This document shows positions 1,997 to 50,510 of a DNA stretch of 64,000 nucleotides, one piece after another. The notes under the pieces are model-generated. The model searched no databases, had not been told where the DNA came from, and saw only the letters and a list, made by a program, of their open reading frames with translations. Position 1 is the stretch's first letter. Each line of letters begins with the position of its first letter. The DNA comes from Escherichia phage vB_EcoM_VR7: the sequence record NC_014792.1. One strand, given 5' to 3'. Both the position numbers and the translations under genes were made by a program.

Positions 1997-2551
1997 TTAC
2001 CGGTAGCGACCCGGTTTCTTGTTTGGTATTTCAAATTGCGTAGATTTAGTATCTAATTTTTTAACTATGGAACTTATGTCATGAAAGAAAAACCATTCAC
2101 CATTTATATGGTCCTGATTATAAATGGTGTGCATATATTTTTCAAGTTCTACTGCATCCTGGGAATATCTAAATGATACTATTTTAAAACTTTTAAAAGG
2201 TGAAAATGTATTTGCTGCTATAGCTCTAACATCGGGTTCTATACTTCTTCCTATTTTATAATAATTAGGATTTGTAGTGTCTACCATTATGTATACAAAA
2301 GCTTGTCGATAACTTTTTTCTATATCGAATTCATCTTTAAATTTCAATAGATTTAGAGCAGCCGTTCTACAAAATATTCCCCATATCGACGAGCGTTTAG
2401 CTTCGGTCATCGAAAAGAATTTTTTCTTATCTATGATTTTAAGAAAAGCCACCTTTTCAATTAGTTCTTGTGTTATTTCAAAATTACCATGGTATATTAA
2501 TCCAGCTTTTATAGCCAAATTAATTTGGTCCCAGTCTACATCACTTCTCAT
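1997..2551 (-). CDS. T5orf172 / GIY-YIG-superfamily domain protein (184 aa) in the tRNA island; possible homing-endonuclease-like nuclease
   Basis: C-terminal half carries FVYIMV...NYYKIGRS...R...E...NGEWFFF, resembling the GIY-YIG/T5orf172 signature; occupies the position where T4 has segB in its tRNA cluster. Confidence 0.5.
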   Translation of the reverse strand: MRSDVDWDQINLAIKAGLIYHGNFEITQELIEKVAFLKIIDKKKFFSMTEAKRSSIWGIFCRTAALNLLKFKDEFDIEKSYRQAFVYIMVDTTNPNYYKIGRSIEPDVRAIAANTFSPFKSFKIVSFRYSQDAVELEKYMHTIYNQDHINGEWFFFHDISSIVKKLDTKSTQFEIPNKKPGRYR

Positions 2552-2570
2552 AATATTATTCTCATTAATT

Positions 2571-2647
2571 TGGTCGGGGTGAAAGGATTCTAACCTTTAA
2601 CCTGCGGTTTAGAGGACCGCTACTCTATACAATTGAGTTACACCCCG
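2571..2647 (-). tRNA. tRNA-Arg (anticodon UCU)
   Basis: Minus strand folds as a cloverleaf: acceptor CGGGGTG/CACCCCG, D-stem ACTC/GAGT, anticodon stem GCGGT/ACCGC with loop CCTCTAA (TCT), T-stem AAAGG/CCTTT, encoded 3' CCA. Confidence 0.8.
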
Positions 2648-6189: not shown

Positions 6190-6190
<1 letters not shown>

Positions 6191-6867
6191 TATATTACCT
6201 TATTAATTTTATCAAAAAGTTCTTCGAGTGTGCCATCGTTTTTAATAACAATGTCACTAGCTAGTGGTGGAAGTCCAGCTTCCGTAATGTGTGTATCAGT
6301 AGAATGATTTGCTTCATCGCGTTCTACAAAGATTATTGTAGCACCCATCGCCCGAAGCGAATCAAGTTCGTTCTTTTGGCGAACATCTGGGACAACGTAA
6401 TATTTATATCCAGAATAGAGGTTGTCAAGATAATCGCATGCAAAAGTTTTAATCCAAAACATGCTGTCGAACTCTGTACAAACGATATCAGTTCCAAGGG
6501 TCTGCATGAAACGTCTAACTGTCCAGGGCTCAACATTATTTAGTGTGTGAAATTCAATGATTTTACGAACCATATCTGGATTCGGAAGGTCAAGATTATA
6601 TTGTTGTTTCAACCATTCAAGAGCGTCAACCAGAAGAATATGAGCTTCAGTGTTGTTCATTATCAAGGTTTTTTCACGGTCATAACCTTGTCCATCAAAA
6701 TTTTCCAGGGTCAAATTGTGTGGCAGGTCTTGACGAACCCACGCTTTATAAAGCGCTTCTTTAATTGGACCAGCAAGTTGCCACTTTGTTCCGTTTTGAC
6801 TAATAACATAATCAGCGGTCGTATCTTTACCACTGCGTTTTTTACCCACAATCGCAATTAATTTCAT
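6190..6867 (-). CDS. 1: Deoxynucleoside monophosphate kinase (gene 1)
   Basis: P-loop GKKRSGKDT near the N-terminus; 225 aa; synteny with T4 gene 1. Confidence 0.85.
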
Positions 6868-7463
6868 ACGTTTCTCATAGATGGATGCATTGACTTAGAC
6901 CTGATTTCCTGTTGCATTGCTGCATTACTATCAATCTGTGGTCTACCTTCTATTATTATACCATCAATTTCTACAGCAAAAGACTTAAAGTTAAAAGTTG
7001 CTGTTGCATTGATAGCAGGGTCAGAATCTTCTTTATATGAATACTGAATCTCTGACAGGTCGGACGGCCATGCTCCATAGTAATGGATTGACATGACAAT
7101 TTTGTCCTTGTTGTTATCTAAGATATGAAGCGTGACCGCTTCGGGACGACCCTTTGGATGCCATGCTTTTGATTCGTGTGTGATGTAGTTATTAAGCGAG
7201 AGCATCCATTTATAGATATCAAGCCATGCCCTTAGGTCTTTGTCACACAGAAAGTTAACAATCAGCGGGTCGAATTCTATTGTACTACCAGGAAGACTGG
7301 AGCGATTTATACCTTGCGTTCCGCCGGGGACATCCGTCACAGGAATGTGAACCCCTGGGAGGGTAACGTCTTGAACGTTGAGTTTAAAAGTCTGTGTGAG
7401 GTTTGAATCGCTTACCTCTAATATAAAGTTAGTCGTGTTAGTTTGATTATATAAACCTGACAT
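6864..7463 (-). CDS. 3: gp3 tail completion / tail tube terminator protein
   Basis: Size and position between gene 1 and gene 2 as in T4. Confidence 0.75.
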   Translation of the reverse strand: MSGLYNQTNTTNFILEVSDSNLTQTFKLNVQDVTLPGVHIPVTDVPGGTQGINRSSLPGSTIEFDPLIVNFLCDKDLRAWLDIYKWMLSLNNYITHESKAWHPKGRPEAVTLHILDNNKDKIVMSIHYYGAWPSDLSEIQYSYKEDSDPAINATATFNFKSFAVEIDGIIIEGRPQIDSNAAMQQEIRSKSMHPSMRNV

Positions 7464-7475
7464 AGTGCACCTTGT

Positions 7476-7501
7476 TTGCTTAAACCAATCAGTGTTATAA
7501 T
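7476..7501 (+). promoter_or_regulatory. T4 middle-type promoter (MotA box TTGCTTA + 13 nt + TATAAT) on the plus strand, antisense to the HNH gene
   Basis: ttgctta 7476-7482, 13-nt spacer, tataat 7496-7501; inverted copy of the ggtctagaaccattata element at 43173 and 50473. Confidence 0.4.
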
Positions 7502-7547
7502 GGTTCTAGACCTTTTGTCCTTACCAATAACACTGACCGATAATAGA

Positions 7548-8219
7548 TTATTTTATTAATGTGTTAAGTCTTAGCTTAGTCATAAACGGATAACGTTCCA
7601 ACATTGGCTTTACCCAGTATCGAGGATGCAATTCCTTTTTATATGCTAGGACCAACTCTCGAGCTTGCTCGACGGTATCAACTCCGAAGTTTTTACACAT
7701 TTCTTGCCTATCTTTTTCCCACCGGCGCTTTGATAATTCTGCGTTGACTTTCGTAAATGTATCATTCTTTCGGTTGTGTTTTTTGCCCGTTGTTGGGCTG
7801 TAATGTCTTCCTTTAACGAATCCTTCTGGAACGTCTTCCCACGGAAATAATTTTATCGATTTGACACCATTATTAAAATAAACTTTTCCCGTTTGACTTT
7901 TCGAAATGTTGTTGGCATGTTTACGTCTTAACCAACCAAATAATTTATTGTTATGCCGTTTATGATTTTTTGAATTTTGTGCCATTGTTGTTGCGGCAAA
8001 ACTTAACCCAGGATGTGTGGGATATATTTTAACCAGTAATTGATGCGCGACATAATGTTCTTCGGGTGTTAAATTAACCAGATTATCTGGGTCATTGGAA
8101 CCGCCCATACATTTTGGAATGATGTGATGAGATTCTTTATATGAAATCAGGACCCTGTTACGGGCCCTTTCAATTAACGATGAATATATAAACTGATAAT
8201 TCAAAGTGAATTTCTCCAA
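7548..8219 (-). CDS. HNH homing endonuclease (freestanding), inserted between genes 3 and 2
   Basis: HNH core [30 protein letters not shown]; non-ATG (TTG) start with weak RBS; not present between T4 genes 2 and 3. Confidence 0.75.
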
Positions 8220-9037
8220 ACTTTTTGTGCAGAGAATTTTTTGCCTTTGCTGTAAAAAGCTTGCAATGGAAGCATAACAACGTTTGCCCAGTCGCTGGGC
8301 TTGATTTCAGTGATAGTACCTTTTATATTACCAGGTATATATGCTTTAATCATCTGGTCAGCCCCTTTAAATCCCTTCACCTTTGACCAATCAATCTTCA
8401 GATGAGTCTTGTTCGTAATCGTAGGAGTATTAGCATATTGCTTAAGCAGTTCCTCAAGGAACTCTTGACGTGCCTTCGGTGGAATATAGTGCAAGTTCAA
8501 ACCATACATCAAATTGTGCTTACCTAACCCAAGATAAATGATTAACGGATATTTGTCCCAGTACGGAAGAGTATCCTTATGCTTTGCATCATAGATATAA
8601 GCATAAATCTTACCTGGTTGAGGTTTAGCCGTTACGTGTCCTCTGACAGCTTTCTTAATTGTCTCTGCGAACCATCTGGCAGATTTGGTGTTGCTTGCAG
8701 CGCCTTCGTTAGCAATCTTATCTCTTATGCTCTTTCTAAAGCTATTCACCATTATTAGCTGGCGTTCAGCCTTCGTAAGTTTACCAGCAGGTTTCTTTTT
8801 GAGTTTGGATACTTTATAAGCAGTCTGAATTCTCGAATGATATCTTGACATGCTTTTGGTAAAGGTTGAATAGTTGATTCCTTTCTCTTCAGCAAACTTT
8901 TTCGAGGTCATTCCCTTTTCTTTTGCTGTATAAAATTCAACCCCTATCTCAACCCATTGTTGTTCGGATTTACTGGGTTTCGGACCCGGTTTATCTGCAG
9001 ATTCATTGATAAATGTAAAAATACTCATCCTTTCCAT
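8201..9037 (-). CDS. 2: gp2 DNA end-protector / head completion protein
   Basis: 278 aa; synteny between 3 and 4. Confidence 0.8.
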
Positions 9038-9474
9038 CCTAATTTTTTCAGTGAGTTTTCAGTGATTATCCTGAACGTTATACCCATTTTATCTGCCGTA
9101 GATTGTGCAGCTTTCCATTTGTCCGAGTTAACAGCCCAGGTATACATCTCGTTAATAAATCTCTTTTTGCTCGCAGCGGTATTATTAACAGGTTTGGTTG
9201 GTGGTCTTGTTTCTTTTAATGGCTTAACTTCGAAAAAGAACTGTTGTCCTGTATCAAACTTAACCCAGAAATCCATATAATACCTGCGCTTTTTACCATC
9301 GGCATTGCTAAAGTAAGGGATGATAACAGTCTCAGAACCCCATTGAACAACGTTCGGATGGTTGTCGAGCCATCTCATCAACCAAGCCTCCCAGCTCGAC
9401 CTGTATTGTATTTTCTTCCAGTCACCCTTATATTTTTCTATATTAGTGGGCTTAAATTTCCCGGAGTATGCCAT
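9025..9474 (-). CDS. 4: gp4 head completion protein
   Basis: 149 aa; MAYSGK... N-terminus and overall match to remembered T4 gp4. Confidence 0.9.
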
Positions 9475-9502
9475 ATAGCCTCCTAATAAATATTGATATA
9501 CT

Positions 9503-9510
9503 TATTTATA
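9503..9510 (-). promoter_or_regulatory. T4 late promoter TATAAATA (minus strand) for genes 4-2-3
   Basis: Plus tatttata is TATAAATA on the minus strand, ~29 nt upstream of the gp4 start; overlaps a near-consensus plus-strand TATAAATG for gene 53. Confidence 0.55.
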
Positions 9511-9522
9511 AATGGAGGCTTT

Positions 9523-10125
9523 ATGCTTTTTTCATTTTTTAACCCAATTGATTATGATGCTAAAACAATCAGAAAAAACCCTGCATCATTGACGAAAGAA
9601 GATGTCTTAAGCATTCCAATGACAGACATCTTCAGAAATTATCGTGCTTACTTTGATAAGGTCGCGGTCAATTATACACCAAAAACCTATTACATCGCCG
9701 GAGCTCCGCGTCCGGAAGAATTATCATATCAGCTTTACGGTAACACGCAGCTATATTGGGTTCTCCTTATGCTCAATGATATCTATGACCCTTATTATGG
9801 TTGGCTTTGTACCCAAGAAGCATCGTATCAAGCATCAATTCAGAAATATTCGAATGTCGGGGGTAATCAGGTCCTTTATCATGTGAATGAAGATGGTGAA
9901 AAGTTCTGGAACCTTGTTTCTTATCCTGATAATCCATACACATGGTACGATAAAGGTGACAAGAACAAATTATATCCACAATACGAAGGTCCATTAGCTG
10001 CAGTGGATATCTATGAAGATGCTATCCGTAAAAATGAATACAAACGCGAAATAAAAATAATCGACCCGGAAGATATTGAGTCATTTATTTCCGCACTTAT
10101 CCGTGAAATGGAGAAGGCGCTATGA
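9523..10125 (+). CDS. 53: gp53 baseplate wedge protein
   Basis: ORF track 9493..10125 trimmed to the ATG at 9523 (GGAGG RBS); MLFSFFNPIDY... matches T4 gp53. Confidence 0.9.
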   Translation: MLFSFFNPIDYDAKTIRKNPASLTKEDVLSIPMTDIFRNYRAYFDKVAVNYTPKTYYIAGAPRPEELSYQLYGNTQLYWVLLMLNDIYDPYYGWLCTQEASYQASIQKYSNVGGNQVLYHVNEDGEKFWNLVSYPDNPYTWYDKGDKNKLYPQYEGPLAAVDIYEDAIRKNEYKREIKIIDPEDIESFISALIREMEKAL

Positions 10126-11852: not shown

Positions 11853-11886
11853 TATCCTACCAATGAGCGCTGATTTAGGAGACTCC

Positions 11887-30337: not shown

Positions 30338-32317
30338 ATGGCTTTATTATCCCCGGGCATTGAGCTCAAAGAAACAACGGTCCAAAGCACTGTTGTTCGT
30401 AACGCGACGGGTCGTGCGGCGCTGGTTGGTAAATTCCAGTGGGGCCCAGCTTTCCAGGTAACTCAGATTACAAACGAAGTGGAACTTGTTGATTTGTTTG
30501 GTGGTCCGAACAATATCACAGCTGACTACTTTATGAGTGGAATGAACTTCCTTCAATATGGTAATGACCTGCGCACAGTTCGTGTAGTTAACCGCGACCA
30601 CGCTAAAAACGCATCCCCGGTAGCAGGGAACATCGAAAGTACAATCGCTACTGCAGGTTCTAACTATGCAGTCGGTGACGTTATCCAGGTTAAACACAAC
30701 CAGACTGTTGTTGAAACTTCTGGCCGTATTACCAAGGTTGACGTTGACGGGAAAATCCTCGCGGTCTTCATTCCGTCTGACAAAATTATTGCCTTTGCAA
30801 AATCTGTAAACCAGTATCCGGACCTTGGTCCAGCGTGGACTGCTGAAATCCTGACCACTTCTTCAGGTGTGTCTGGTACGATTACCCTTGGGAAAATTGT
30901 CACCGATTCTGGTATCCTGTTGACCGAAGCAGAAAATAGCGAAGAAGCTATTACCTCTTTGGAATTCCAGGCTTCCCTGCAGAAATATGCAATGCCGGGT
31001 GTTGTTGCTCTTTATCCTGGTGAAATCGGCTCGACTCTCGAAGTTGAAATCGTTTCCAAAGCTGCATATGATGTTGGCGCTTCGAAGATGCTTGACATTT
31101 ATCCGAATGGTGGTTCCCGTGCTTCTGTTGCTCGTGCGGTGTTTAACTATGGTCCGCAGACTGACGACCAGTATGCAATCATCGTTCGTCGTGATGGTGC
31201 TATCGTTGAAAACGTTGTTCTGTCAACCAAAGAAGGCGATAAAGACGTTTACGGCAACAACATTTATCTGGACGACTACTTTGCAAAAGGTACTTCCAAT
31301 TACATCTATGCAACTTCTCTGAACTGGCCAAAAGGCTTTGCAGGCATCATCAATCTGATGGGCGGTATTTCTGCAAACGACCAGGTTACTGCTGGTGATT
31401 TGATGCAAGGTTGGGACCTGTTTGCTGACCGTGAAGCACTGCATATTAACCTGCTTATCGCTGGTGCAGTAGCTGGTGAAGGTGATGCAACCGCTTCAAC
31501 TGTTCAGAAGCACGTGGTTTCTATCGCTGACGAACGTCAGGATTGCCTGGCATTTATCTCTCCACCAAAAGGCCTTCTGGTTAACGTTCCTCTGACCCGT
31601 GCAGTGGATAACCTGATTGACTGGCGTACAGGTGGCGGCTCATTCGATACTGATAACATGAATATCAGCACGACTTATGCAGCGATTGATGGCAACTATA
31701 AATATCAGTATGATAAATATAACGACGTTAACCGTTGGGTTCCTCTGGCAGCTGATATGGCTGGTCTGTGTGCTCGTACTGATGATGTTTCTCAGCCTTG
31801 GATGTCTCCGCCCGGTTATAACCGTGGTCAGATTCTGAACGTACTGAAATTGGCTATCGAACCTCGTCAGACCCAACGTGACCGCATGTATCAAGAAGCT
31901 ATCAACCCGGTTGTTGGTTTCGCAGGTGGTGATGGTTTTGTTCTTTACGGTGATAAGACTGCAACTAAAGTTCCATCTCCGATGGACCATATCAACGTTC
32001 GTCGTCTTACGAATATGCTGAAGAAAAATATCGGTGACGCATCCAAATATAAACTGTTTGAGCTTAACGATAACTTCACTCGTGCATCATTCCGTATGGA
32101 AACTTCTCAATACTTGGATGGTATTCGTGCGCTCGGTGGCATTTATGAAGGTCGTGTAGTTTGTGATACTACCAACAACACCCCATCGGTTATTGACCGA
32201 AATGAATTTGTTGCTAGCATATATTATAAACCGGCAAGGTCGATAAATTATATCGTGCTTAATTTCGTAGCAACAAGTACGGGCGCTGATTTTGATGAGT
32301 TGATTGGGGTGCAATAA
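30338..32317 (+). CDS. 18: gp18 tail sheath protein
   Basis: 659 aa; synteny. Confidence 0.92.
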   Translation: MALLSPGIELKETTVQSTVVRNATGRAALVGKFQWGPAFQVTQITNEVELVDLFGGPNNITADYFMSGMNFLQYGNDLRTVRVVNRDHAKNASPVAGNIESTIATAGSNYAVGDVIQVKHNQTVVETSGRITKVDVDGKILAVFIPSDKIIAFAKSVNQYPDLGPAWTAEILTTSSGVSGTITLGKIVTDSGILLTEAENSEEAITSLEFQASLQKYAMPGVVALYPGEIGSTLEVEIVSKAAYDVGASKMLDIYPNGGSRASVARAVFNYGPQTDDQYAIIVRRDGAIVENVVLSTKEGDKDVYGNNIYLDDYFAKGTSNYIYATSLNWPKGFAGIINLMGGISANDQVTAGDLMQGWDLFADREALHINLLIAGAVAGEGDATASTVQKHVVSIADERQDCLAFISPPKGLLVNVPLTRAVDNLIDWRTGGGSFDTDNMNISTTYAAIDGNYKYQYDKYNDVNRWVPLAADMAGLCARTDDVSQPWMSPPGYNRGQILNVLKLAIEPRQTQRDRMYQEAINPVVGFAGGDGFVLYGDKTATKVPSPMDHINVRRLTNMLKKNIGDASKYKLFELNDNFTRASFRMETSQYLDGIRALGGIYEGRVVCDTTNNTPSVIDRNEFVASIYYKPARSINYIVLNFVATSTGADFDELIGVQ

Positions 32318-32384: not shown

Positions 32385-32990
32385 GTGATTATTTCTAAAT
32401 TTGTTGAAGTTCAAATACGAAATCATGCAAAGTGGTGGAGCGAATACTTAGGTAAACCTCTAACATACCATGATGTGATTTCTGTTCCAGTTGAACAAAT
32501 GCCAGATAATAGTAATAAAAAGATTGAGTGTTCCTGTGATGAATGTGGGATACATTTTGAGCGAGGGATTCAGTTGCTTCGTCGCGTTGATAAACATTTA
32601 TGTAAGGCATGTTCAAGAAAAGATATTGGACAAAAGAATGTTATTGCACAAGGCGGTGTGCCAAGACCATGGCAACGTGGTGAAAAACATCATAGCTGGA
32701 AAGGCAATAAGCGTGAATTCTATTTGTACGCTCAACGTGTTCATGCATTGACAAGAGCAAAACATCTAAAGAATATTTGGTCAACATGGGAAAATGCAGA
32801 TAAGATAGGAAAATGTGGGGAAGAAGGTGCATACCAACTTGACCATAAAGTTTCTATTGCGTATGGATTTTATAATCATATACCAGAGACTGTTATCGCT
32901 TCGCTCAACAATTTAGAAATAGTCACTTGGGAATCTAATAGGTCCAAAGGAAAATCAAATAGTATTGACTTATGGGATATATTATCCTGA
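32385..32990 (+). CDS. HNH homing endonuclease (freestanding) inserted between genes 18 and 19
   Basis: 201 aa; GTG start with AAGGA RBS; Cys pairs CSCDEC / CKAC and HNH core QLDHKVS...NLEIVTWESN; genes 18 and 19 are adjacent in T4. Confidence 0.85.
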   Translation: MIISKFVEVQIRNHAKWWSEYLGKPLTYHDVISVPVEQMPDNSNKKIECSCDECGIHFERGIQLLRRVDKHLCKACSRKDIGQKNVIAQGGVPRPWQRGEKHHSWKGNKREFYLYAQRVHALTRAKHLKNIWSTWENADKIGKCGEEGAYQLDHKVSIAYGFYNHIPETVIASLNNLEIVTWESNRSKGKSNSIDLWDILS

Positions 32991-33014: not shown

Positions 33015-33067
33015 CCGTAGAACCATTATACAATGCTATAAATAAAAGCATATCATCGGTTCTACGG
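33015..33067 (+). promoter_or_regulatory. Long hairpin (10-bp stem CCGTAGAACC/GGTTCTACGG, 33-nt loop) containing a TATAAATA motif
   Basis: Perfect inverted repeat 33015-33024 / 33058-33067; loop has tataaata at 33037-33044; lies just downstream of the HNH gene. Confidence 0.55.
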
Positions 33068-33133: not shown

Positions 33134-33185
33134 CATGCATCAGGGACGCGTTCGCGCGACCTGTGTCTATAAAGAGGATTCCTTA

Positions 33186-33677
33186 ATGGAGTTGACCGAT
33201 ATCACACGCGCTTTCGAATCCGGTGACTTTGCTCGCCCTAACCTGTTCGAAGTCGAAATCCCATTCCTGGGTAAAAACTTTGCTTTCCATTGTAAAGCAG
33301 CCCCGATGCCAGCAGGCATTGTAGAAAAAGTACCAGTTGGTTACATGAACCGTAAAATCAACGTCGCGGGAGACCGTACATTTGATGACTGGACTATTAC
33401 GATTTATAACGACGATGCTCATAAAGTTCGTCAAGCAATTGTTGATTGGCAAAATATGTGTCACGGTATGACCAACGAAATTACCGGTGCAGCTCCTGCT
33501 GATTATAAGAAAACCGCTACTGTCCGCCAGTTCCATCGTGATGGCAAGACCATTACTAAAGAAGTTGTTATCACCGGTATGTGGCCAACTAACGTTGGGG
33601 AAGTCCAGATGGATTGGGATTCGAATAATGAGATTGAGACATTCGAAACTACGTTTGCAATTGACTGGTGGGAATAA
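33186..33677 (+). CDS. 19: gp19 tail tube protein
   Basis: ORF track 33135.. trimmed to the ATG at 33186 (AAAGAGGA RBS); MELTDITRAFESGDFARPNLFEVE matches the T4 gp19 N-terminus. Confidence 0.9.
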   Translation: MELTDITRAFESGDFARPNLFEVEIPFLGKNFAFHCKAAPMPAGIVEKVPVGYMNRKINVAGDRTFDDWTITIYNDDAHKVRQAIVDWQNMCHGMTNEITGAAPADYKKTATVRQFHRDGKTITKEVVITGMWPTNVGEVQMDWDSNNEIETFETTFAIDWWE

Positions 33678-43182: not shown

Positions 43183-43209
43183 ATTATACCACAATTTTAT
43201 TTGAAGCAA
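43183..43209 (-). promoter_or_regulatory. T4 middle-type promoter (MotA box TTGCTTCA + 13 nt + TATAAT) for rnlB
   Basis: Minus strand TTGCTTCA-N13-TATAAT; -10 lies in the ggtctagaaccattata element. Confidence 0.5.
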
Positions 43210-43678: not shown

Positions 43679-43815
43679 GGTGAGTTAGGGAAGCTATCTT
43701 AACATGGAATTTTTAACTTGTAAACAGGAGTTTTATGCCAGATATTCTTGAACGTAAAGATTTACTTTACAACCGCCACTACCTTAATAAATATTAAATT
43801 AATAACGGAGGATTT

Positions 43816-45099
<1,284 letters not shown>

Positions 45100-50484: not shown

Positions 50485-50510
50485 ATTATACAGCCATAAA
50501 ATTAAAGCAT
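50485..50510 (-). promoter_or_regulatory. T4 middle-type promoter (MotA box ATGCTTTA + 12 nt + TATAAT) for uvsY
   Basis: Minus strand TGCTTTA-N12-TATAAT within the ggtctagaaccattata element. Confidence 0.5.

Follow-up and report, generated by a model that had tools for sequence, protein, structure and literature searches.

The gene 2-gene 3 region

The 64-kb stretch of DNA analysed here, called the window, comes from a T4-type coliphage of the genus Gaprivervirus (the SP18/VR20/VR25/VR26 group). Between positions 6800 and 9100 the window is 94.6% identical to phage VR25 over the full length, and it is 96-99% identical to about 25 other members of the genus apart from a gap of about 0.66 kb. 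Gene 4 (9025-9474), gene 2 (8201-9037), which encodes the DNA end protector, gene 3 (6864-7463), which encodes the tail tube terminator, and gene 1 (6190-6867), which encodes a dNMP kinase, are all read from the minus strand. Genes 53 and 5 diverge from them on the plus strand. Gene 3 is the downstream cistron of a late operon and has the ribosome binding site AAGGTG at about 7469-7474.

Genes 2 and 3 are separated by a minus-strand gene for a free-standing homing endonuclease of the HNH (Mob) type (7548-8204) and by the ancestral gene 2-gene 3 spacer of 84 bp (7464-7547). The spacer holds a promoter-like element in antisense orientation and a stem-loop on the sense strand. The first-pass annotation had described an HNH reading frame between genes 3 and 2 that overlaps the gp2 stop. 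This description was confirmed, and the HNH motif that it quoted is present. It had also counted the protein as the second HNH endonuclease. The window contains no paralogue of this protein, but it does contain an HNH-like open reading frame of a different family at 32385-32990. This frame lies between genes 18 and 19; its motif was recognized by eye, and it has no Pfam match.

The endonuclease and its start codon

The endonuclease reading frame is matched by the Pfam HNH family with an E-value of 2.8e-4, exactly at the cut-off of 21.4 bits, and by PHROG 655, 'homing endonuclease', with an E-value of 2e-57. The HH...N...H residues are kept in an alignment of all its orthologues. The orthologue in VR25, gp162, is annotated as a 'putative mobile endonuclease, similar to T4 MobB'. 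The enzyme is of a known kind, and it is found at a locus that is already annotated in GenBank.

The longest form of the reading frame (7548-8219) comprises 223 codons and begins with the TTG at 8219, which had been taken as the start codon. The codon at this position is ATG in VR26, VR25 and UPEC07, and TTG in SP18 and in the window. The upstream sequence 'TTG GAG AAA TTC A' belongs to gene 2 and is found in endonuclease-free phages as well. In Dhakavirus E33 and Winklervirus Gravdalen, which have an orthologue at the same gene 2 junction, the protein opens with MNYQ or MNYK encoded from an ATG that overlaps the gene 2 stop codon (TAATG, ATGA). Because this ATG aligns with the second in-frame TTG of the window, at 8204-8202, the true start is most likely TTG 8204 and the predicted product, ending at the TAA at 7550-7548, has 218 amino acids. 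The earlier proposal of a non-ATG start is thereby retained as a TTG start, whereas its position at 8219 and the length of 223 amino acids are not.

Translation signals are better than had been claimed. A clear ribosome binding site was said to be lacking, but TTG 8204 is preceded at a distance of 9 nt by GGAG (8217-8214, minus strand), read as a Shine-Dalgarno sequence. It is made of the last codons of gene 2 and, according to the alignment, is present in the endonuclease-free phages too. TTG 8204 overlaps the new stop codon of gene 2 (TGA, 8203-8201) as TTGA. An overlap of this type, together with the GGAG, is a layout that suits translational coupling between gene 2 and the endonuclease gene.

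Insertion of the cassette

The junctions of the insert were fixed by aligning the window, VR25 and UPEC07, which have the endonuclease gene, with VR26 and SP18, which do not. In the endonuclease-free genomes ...GAGAAATTCA is followed directly by TAATCTATTATCGG. Here 656 bp (7551-8206) stand between the two; the junctions are exact, with a boundary that is ambiguous by 1 nt. The insertion point is directly before the stop codon of gene 2. The insert adds one Leu codon and a new TGA stop to gene 2, and the original gene 2 stop codon is now the TAA that ends the endonuclease reading frame.

The cassette is present in seven phage records of the database and absent from about 25 close relatives that are 96-99% identical. 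A tblastn search found full-length relatives of the protein in 98 phage records. Among the full-length matches listed, all adjoin a 'DNA end protector' gene (Gaprivervirus, Dhakavirus, Tequatrovirus and an Acinetobacter phage). The two halves of the protein have different relatives. Only the N-terminal part of about 100 amino acids resembles Mob genes of other loci, T4 MobB (49% identity) among them. The C-terminal half was matched, among the tblastn matches listed, only in copies adjoining gene 2.

The gene is intergenic, residing in neither an intron nor an intein, and its presence is patchy among close relatives. Its sequence is 85.6% identical to the alleles of VR25 and UPEC07, whereas the identity of gene 3 is 97-99%. 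Within the genus the final 120 nt of gene 2 are hypervariable, with 27 variable columns compared to five in the initial 120 nt of gene 3. The window's copy of this gene 2 end is 98.3% identical to that of the endonuclease-free SP18 and 81.7% identical to that of VR25. Such a mosaic of flank and allele is the pattern expected of a mobile gene that spreads by homing with co-conversion; cleavage by the enzyme is putative.

Expression of the endonuclease

A matrix and motif scan of the sense strand between 7548 and 9500 found neither a MotA-type site nor the late promoter sequence TATAAATA. Upstream of the endonuclease gene, the sole promoter candidate found on the sense strand is a late promoter, TATAAATA at 9510-9503, located upstream of gene 4. 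Since no promoter of its own was found, the endonuclease gene is probably carried by the late 4-2-3 operon as a promoter-less cassette. Seven free-standing endonucleases of T4 have been described as 'promoter-less cassettes' in the review by Edgell (PMC2988022). The same review states that the T4 free-standing endonuclease genes start with AUG, except for mobA, which starts with GUG.

The antisense promoter-like element

The motif TTGCTTA-N13-TATAAT, reported earlier as a match to the architecture of a middle promoter, is found exactly at 7476-7501 of the plus strand. The MotA box of T4 middle promoters has the consensus (a/t)(a/t)(a/t)TGCTTtA, is centred near -30 and is separated from the -10 region by 12 +/- 1 bp (PMC2988021). 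Read in these terms, the element is composed of the MotA-box-like sequence TTTGCTTAA (7475-7483), a 12-nt spacer, the TGn of an extended -10 region (7493-7495) and TATAAT (7496-7501). The complete extended -10 region, TGT-TATAAT (7493-7501), is followed by GGTTCTAGACC, which recurs at the analogue of the uvsY promoter (-10 region at 50490) and at the site 43188. The element thus agrees with T4 middle promoters in its MotA box, in the 12-nt spacing and in the combination of TGn with a perfect sigma-70 -10 sequence.

A two-block weight matrix was derived from 58 experimentally mapped T4 middle promoters, using the start sites in Table 1 of PMC2988021 and the T4 genome. The site at 7496 scores 19.8 bits and is the best on the plus strand of the window, the runner-up scoring 14.3 bits. 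Sites of at least 16 bits number one on the plus strand and seven on the minus strand. In block shuffles, 0.005 sites per strand reach the score of the window site. The assignment to the T4 MotA-type architecture is borne out by these values.

By likeness to the T4 promoter PuvsY, transcription is predicted to start at 7508/7509. The predicted start near 7508 is 40 nt beyond the stop codon of the endonuclease gene and heads into it. As had been proposed, a transcript, if initiated, would run antisense over the endonuclease gene and gene 2. T4 middle promoters drive prereplicative genes on the early/middle strand; this element is on the opposite strand and has no open reading frame downstream. 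Neither an open reading frame nor an intrinsic terminator common to the genera was found beyond the predicted start; a weak hairpin located at +122 is limited to the endonuclease-free members of Gaprivervirus and to Karamvirus. A generic sigma-70 scan did not list the plus-strand site. This is expected, since a promoter of this type has no -35 element. The terminator-like matches of the scan show no excess over the shuffle expectation. A comparison of 6800-9700 with Rfam gave no match.

The closest endonuclease-carrying relative, VR25, encodes both AsiA (VR25_268) and MotA (VR25_276), whose genes are outside the window; their presence is taken from the VR25 annotation, and a query of viral contigs with T4 MotA gave no Gaprivervirus match. 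Stoskiene et al. are said to have found in 2007 that some good matches to the middle-promoter consensus yield no transcript.

Conservation of the element

Among five Gapriverviruses, some with and some without the endonuclease, only three columns of the 84-bp spacer vary. In the relatives the MotA box reads TTTGCTTTAA, and a 1-nt deletion in the window makes the spacer between box and -10 region 12 nt long instead of 13. The orthologous site scores 20.6 bits in VR25, VR26, SP18 and UPEC07. The T4 counterpart, at 75988 on the plus strand, scores 21.6 bits, more than 98% of the 58 mapped promoters do, and is the third-best site in the genome. Antisense elements upstream of gene 3 score 16.7-21.6 bits in Gaprivervirus, Dhakavirus, Winklervirus, Karamvirus, Mosigvirus and Tequatrovirus, and several further lineages of viral contigs fall into the same range. 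Two more are recognizable, at 13.5 and 6.0 bits. A separate candidate, that an antisense site at 33030 is as old as the gene 2/3 site, was rejected, the best score in the gene 18/19 spacer of T4 being 7.1 bits.

Across the Tevenvirinae lineages TATAATG and the GCTT box are kept at a spacing of mostly 12-13 nt, while the sequence of the spacer between them changes completely. TATAATG is found in 17 of 17 aligned lineages; the alignment was anchored on TATAATG and so demonstrates presence at this site, not invariance. The motif is conserved although gp3 of the compared genera is only about 47-55% identical to that of the window. In the phages examined outside the Tevenvirinae the element is not kept. 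At the gene 2/3 position Krischvirus has an antisense open reading frame of 84 amino acids, and in Slopekvirus the gene order differs.

Endonuclease-free phages, including T4 and RB69, carry the motif. The comparison of the 3-2 junction in relatives, which the first-pass annotation had suggested as a check on its proposal that the motif might control the endonuclease, spoke against that proposal: the spacer is near-identical in genomes with and without the endonuclease. The motif is an ancestral part of the Tevenvirinae gene 2-gene 3 spacer and is not an endonuclease-specific control element. As it predates the endonuclease, it was not built to control it.

The RB69 copy of the element corresponds to the predicted middle promoter Pm:79256 (Nolan et al. 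2006, Additional file 4). No mention of the antisense orientation of Pm:79256, of its conservation or of its relation to PuvsY was found in that paper. The T4 site is missing from the 58 mapped middle promoters (PMC2988021, Table 1); those closest to it are P1 (75393) and P57A (74877). Nothing on the gene 2/3 site was found in the literature on antisense RNA, transcription start sites and replication origins of T4, and a review of T4 replication states that oriE has 'no middle-mode promoters' in its vicinity (PMC3016281). With the antisense element the MotA class gains a new, so far unlisted member; as far as this literature shows, the conservation of the element and its kinship with PuvsY are undescribed.

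Relation to the uvsY promoter

A block that extends from the -10 region to about +10 is common to the gene 2/3 element and the uvsY (oriF) promoter of the same genome, and the block differs between genera. In T4 it reads TATAATG..TCTAAGTCC and is found at PuvsY, at 75988 (plus strand) and at 11885 (plus strand); the 9-mer is found nowhere else. The block of the window, TATAATGGTTCTAGACC, is present at 7496 (plus strand), at the uvsY promoter (-10 region at 50490) and at 43188, and nowhere else. RB69 has TATAATGGTTTTAGGTC at PuvsY and at the gene 2/3 site. A near-identical block, TATAATGGTTCTAAGCCC, is found at T4 PnrdC.7.

Sharing of the -10/+1 block speaks for a function of the element as a promoter of the strong PuvsY type. 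The block may mark origin-type promoters (oriF and, more loosely, P34i/oriG), or it may merely mark strong middle promoters. The A+T content from +1 to +50 is 0.70, compared to 0.59 for the window; at the T4 site it is 0.66, compared to 0.65 for the genome.

The stem-loop in the spacer

The late mRNA can form a stem-loop at 7484-7541 of the minus strand, between the endonuclease stop codon and the ribosome binding site of gene 3. It has a predicted energy of -26 kcal/mol and a z-score of -3.4, and its 3' arm overlaps the complement of the -10 region. An inverted repeat of differing sequence is present in the gene 2-gene 3 spacer of every genus examined. RNAalifold returned no structure for the sense strand of the spacer, because the arms are not in register from genus to genus. 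Their covariation was judged by eye, and G-T wobbles occur on both strands, so that either strand may fold.

As the complement of the -10 region is part of the stem-loop in Gaprivervirus, some of the conservation of the motif in this genus could serve the sense strand. In T4, RB69 and Karamvirus the hairpin is clear of the -10 region, yet the -10 region is still invariant. For this reason the hairpin cannot explain the conservation of the promoter-like blocks.

Interpretation

The explanation that accounts best for these observations, with a probability of about 0.7, is that the endonuclease gene and the plus-strand motif are two independent neighbours, namely a promoter-less cassette of the Mob type at the stop codon of gene 2 and an ancestral antisense promoter-like element of the MotA/AsiA class. 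In a Gaprivervirus the cassette was inserted exactly before the stop codon of gene 2, supplying a new TGA and re-using the old TAA. The endonuclease would be transcribed within the late message of genes 4, 2 and 3. Ribosomes terminating on gene 2 may restart at the overlapping TTG, aided by the GGAG, and would produce the endonuclease at a low level. To judge from its family, the enzyme would cut endonuclease-free relatives near the gene 2/3 junction, into which the gene would then be copied by repair.

The plus-strand element points away from gene 3 and would initiate an untranslated RNA at about 7508/7509 that is antisense to gene 2 but that, in this phage, would reach gene 2 only after crossing the inserted endonuclease gene. 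If the endonuclease is damped in this way, the effect would be a by-product of the element and not its purpose; the cassette landed between gene 2 and an element that was already there. The activity of MotA promoters falls in the middle period (PMC2988021). If the endonuclease is expressed from a late operon, the antisense RNA would accordingly encounter chiefly read-through transcripts from the early or middle period and not late mRNA; a side effect on such read-through transcripts is possible. Candidate roles of the element are the silencing of premature gene 2 expression by read-through and the R-loop priming of replication.

On a bolder reading the spacer would hold an unrecognized, deeply conserved and non-coding middle promoter, a sequence twin of the uvsY/oriF promoter, that either primes rightward replication through an R-loop, as the 'missing' middle promoter of the oriE region, or makes an anti-late RNA that silences premature gp2. 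The neighbouring cassettes would come under the same control. This is a tentative proposal, for which the odds are clearly unfavourable.

Its replicative half can be considered separately. If the element were an origin-type promoter, its non-coding middle transcript would form an R-loop that primes rightward replication in the oriE region in the manner of oriF and oriG. There is a precedent in oriG of T4, which uses a non-coding middle promoter (P34i) antisense to late gene 34. In three genera the -10/+1 block is common to the element and the oriF/uvsY promoter, and the T4 9-mer TCTAAGTCC is confined to PuvsY, the gene 2/3 site and 11885; but the block is also present at promoters that are not origins, at 43188 of the window and, in near-identical form, at T4 PnrdC.7. 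The element is 3.4 kb from the annotated oriE, in a region said to have no middle-mode promoters nearby (PMC3016281), but oriE reportedly fires leftward, with an early promoter as its source, and among the mapped origins of T4 none is at 76.0 kb. The 50 nt downstream of the predicted start are rich in A+T in the window (70% against 59%), but those of T4 (66%) match the genome average (65%). On this balance an origin function is unlikely.

It is similarly unlikely that the motif is not an active promoter and has been kept for the sake of the sense strand, as part of a stem-loop, an RNA-processing site or the translation signals of gene 3. This idea would fit the strong sense-strand hairpin that overlaps the complement of the -10 region in Gaprivervirus, the inverted repeats in the spacer of every genus, with arms that covary by eye, and the position of the MotA-box complement next to the ribosome binding site of gene 3. 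The absence of the T4 site from the list of mapped promoters points the same way. However, TATAATGG is invariant in T4, RB69 and Karamvirus, where the hairpin misses the -10 region, and two conserved blocks mostly 12-13 nt apart with a free spacer between them are the signature of a promoter. Moreover, the same -10/+1 block is found at the genuine uvsY promoter, which has no such mRNA context.

A dedicated brake on the endonuclease, which either arrived with the gene or was selected because of it, is improbable to a still greater degree. The geometry is suggestive, with a predicted start 40 nt past the endonuclease stop codon and pointing into the gene. The HNH-like reading frame at 32385-32990 also has a MotA-type site just downstream that faces back into it, and endonuclease insertions can give rise to antisense transcripts (Edgell review, PMC2988022). 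Against this, the spacer and its motif are alike in relatives with and without the endonuclease, the motif is kept in T4, RB69 and other endonuclease-free genera, the site at 33030 is likewise present in relatives that lack the reading frame 32385-32990, and the timing of a middle-period promoter is mismatched to an endonuclease in a late operon.

A functionless chance match, named at the outset as the outcome that would overturn the promoter assignment, is barely conceivable: a rough base-composition estimate predicts about two matches to the loose pattern TGCTTNA-N11-13-TANNNT on each strand of 64 kb, and one plus-strand match was seen, but the score of 19.8 bits with 0.005 such sites expected per strand and the conservation across genera with strongly diverged gp3 rule it out.

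Comparison with known systems

The endonuclease is an ordinary member of its class. It adds to the T4-type catalogue one more locus and a clean stop-codon insertion in which a TTG start overlaps the stop. Like MobB among the T4 proteins MobA-E, it combines an N-terminal HNH domain (49% identity over about 100 amino acids) with a C-terminal region that is probably distinct. With the T4 Mob family it shares the intergenic location, the lack of a promoter, the placement within a polycistronic unit and the patchy distribution among close relatives. It differs in its locus, the gene 2/3 junction of a late operon, where T4 has no endonuclease. The free-standing endonuclease genes of T4 use AUG or GUG start codons, whereas the gene in the window uses a TTG that overlaps the upstream stop codon. 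Its C-terminal half was matched, among the matches listed, only in copies that adjoin gene 2.

The neighbouring element is the more useful result. The T4 promoter set is among the best mapped of any virus, and the site is unlisted in it. The element runs in the 'wrong' direction, is conserved in many Tevenvirinae lineages and shows co-variation with the uvsY/oriF promoter. The until now vague idea that late operons contain antisense or origin-type middle transcription becomes testable at a single T4 coordinate, about 76,001 on the plus strand. If the site is silent, it becomes an incisive test of what a middle promoter needs in addition to the consensus.

The element resembles the MotA/AsiA middle promoters of T4, and PuvsY in particular, in its box with a GCTT core, its 12-nt spacer, its TGn and its perfect TATAAT. 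With PuvsY it further shares the discriminator and the +1 block, each genome having its own version at both places, and its score is in the top tier of the mapped promoters. Unlike typical T4 middle promoters it has no downstream gene and is not among the 58 that have been mapped. The mapped T4 middle promoters that were recovered are all on the minus strand, and the gene 2/3 element is on the opposite one. The RB69 prediction Pm:79256, made with a hidden Markov model of middle promoters, is the orthologous site, on the plus strand of the spacer between gene 3 and gene 2; it is known only as a coordinate in a supplementary table.

The T4 promoter P34i, associated with oriG(34), is likewise of the MotA type, is located within a block of late genes and is directed against them with no coding target. 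It differs in being placed within a coding sequence and in belonging to an experimentally defined origin; the gene 2/3 element, recognized from its sequence, is intergenic and on the other strand.

Gene 2 3' end and cassette junctions

Among members of the genus, the 3' end of gene 2, where the Mob-type HNH homing-endonuclease cassette is inserted, stands out as a hot spot of divergence. In the last 120 nt of the gene (8207-8326), 27 of the 120 columns are variable; the first 120 columns of gene 3 include 5. Either repeated homing or co-conversion, or the selection of variants that resist cleavage, would fit this variability. The initial codons of the cassette, TGAATTATCAG (8190-8200), are similar to the flanking sequence TCTATTATCGG (7535-7547), which lies just beyond the opposite end of the cassette; the resemblance could reflect a short microhomology at both junctions, or coincidence.

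Other nuclease-like ORFs and a collagen-repeat ORF

The second HNH-like ORF of the window (32385-32990, plus strand; 201 aa, GTG start) is unrelated to the gene 2/3 endonuclease and is flanked by genes 18 (30338-32317) and 19 (33135-33677). It has CxxC pairs and the motif QLDHKVS...NNLEIVTWESNRSKG, which was read by eye, and matches PHROG 5104; a Pfam search matched no family. The ORF is found in only 4-5 database phages. Directly 3' of it, and oriented back into it, is a MotA-type site, TATAATGGTTCTA (33025-33050, minus strand), which scores 18.6 bits with the T4 middle-promoter matrix and whose spacer contains a plus-strand late promoter, TATAAATA (33037-33044). Relatives that do not carry the ORF also have this MotA-type site, and T4 has no counterpart of it.

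In the early region, a 199-aa ORF (2000-2596, minus strand) is a candidate for a further mobile nuclease gene: it contains a T5orf172/MUG113 domain, and PHROG gives weak matches to endonucleases. The head completion gene 4 (9025-9474, minus strand) has a match to the N-terminal domain of TnsA-like endonucleases (PF08722, E 1e-21). A 433-aa protein (43798-45096, plus strand), encoded between the gene for RNA ligase 2 and the stretch leading to uvsY, has five matches to the collagen triple-helix repeat (PF01391, E 1e-41).

Comparison with other T4-type phages

The gene 18/19 spacer of Dhakavirus IMGVR_UViG_2706795356 (about 9800-9960 of the locus compared) has the same layout as the gene 2/3 spacer: the stop codon is followed by TAATCTATTATCCC, an inverted repeat and an antisense TGGTATAATGGTTTTAGGTCC promoter-like block. 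This repetition suggests an intergenic module recurring in late operons. RB49-type phages have, in the gap between genes 2 and 3, an 84-aa coiled-coil-like antisense ORF (57-311 in the Krischvirus KFS-EC locus, L091), followed by a bidirectional terminator; in Aeromonas phage 31 the gap contains an annotated 'repeatA' copy.

In T4, the gene 2/3 site is not the only consensus middle promoter on the 'wrong' strand: one more lies in the srd/modA spacer (AF158101 11860-11896, plus strand). At 23.2 bits this is the top plus-strand site, and it exceeds all mapped T4 promoters (maximum 21.9). It is absent from the table of 58 mapped T4 middle promoters, and it has TATAATGAATCTAAGTCC in common with PuvsY, the uvsY promoter at oriF.
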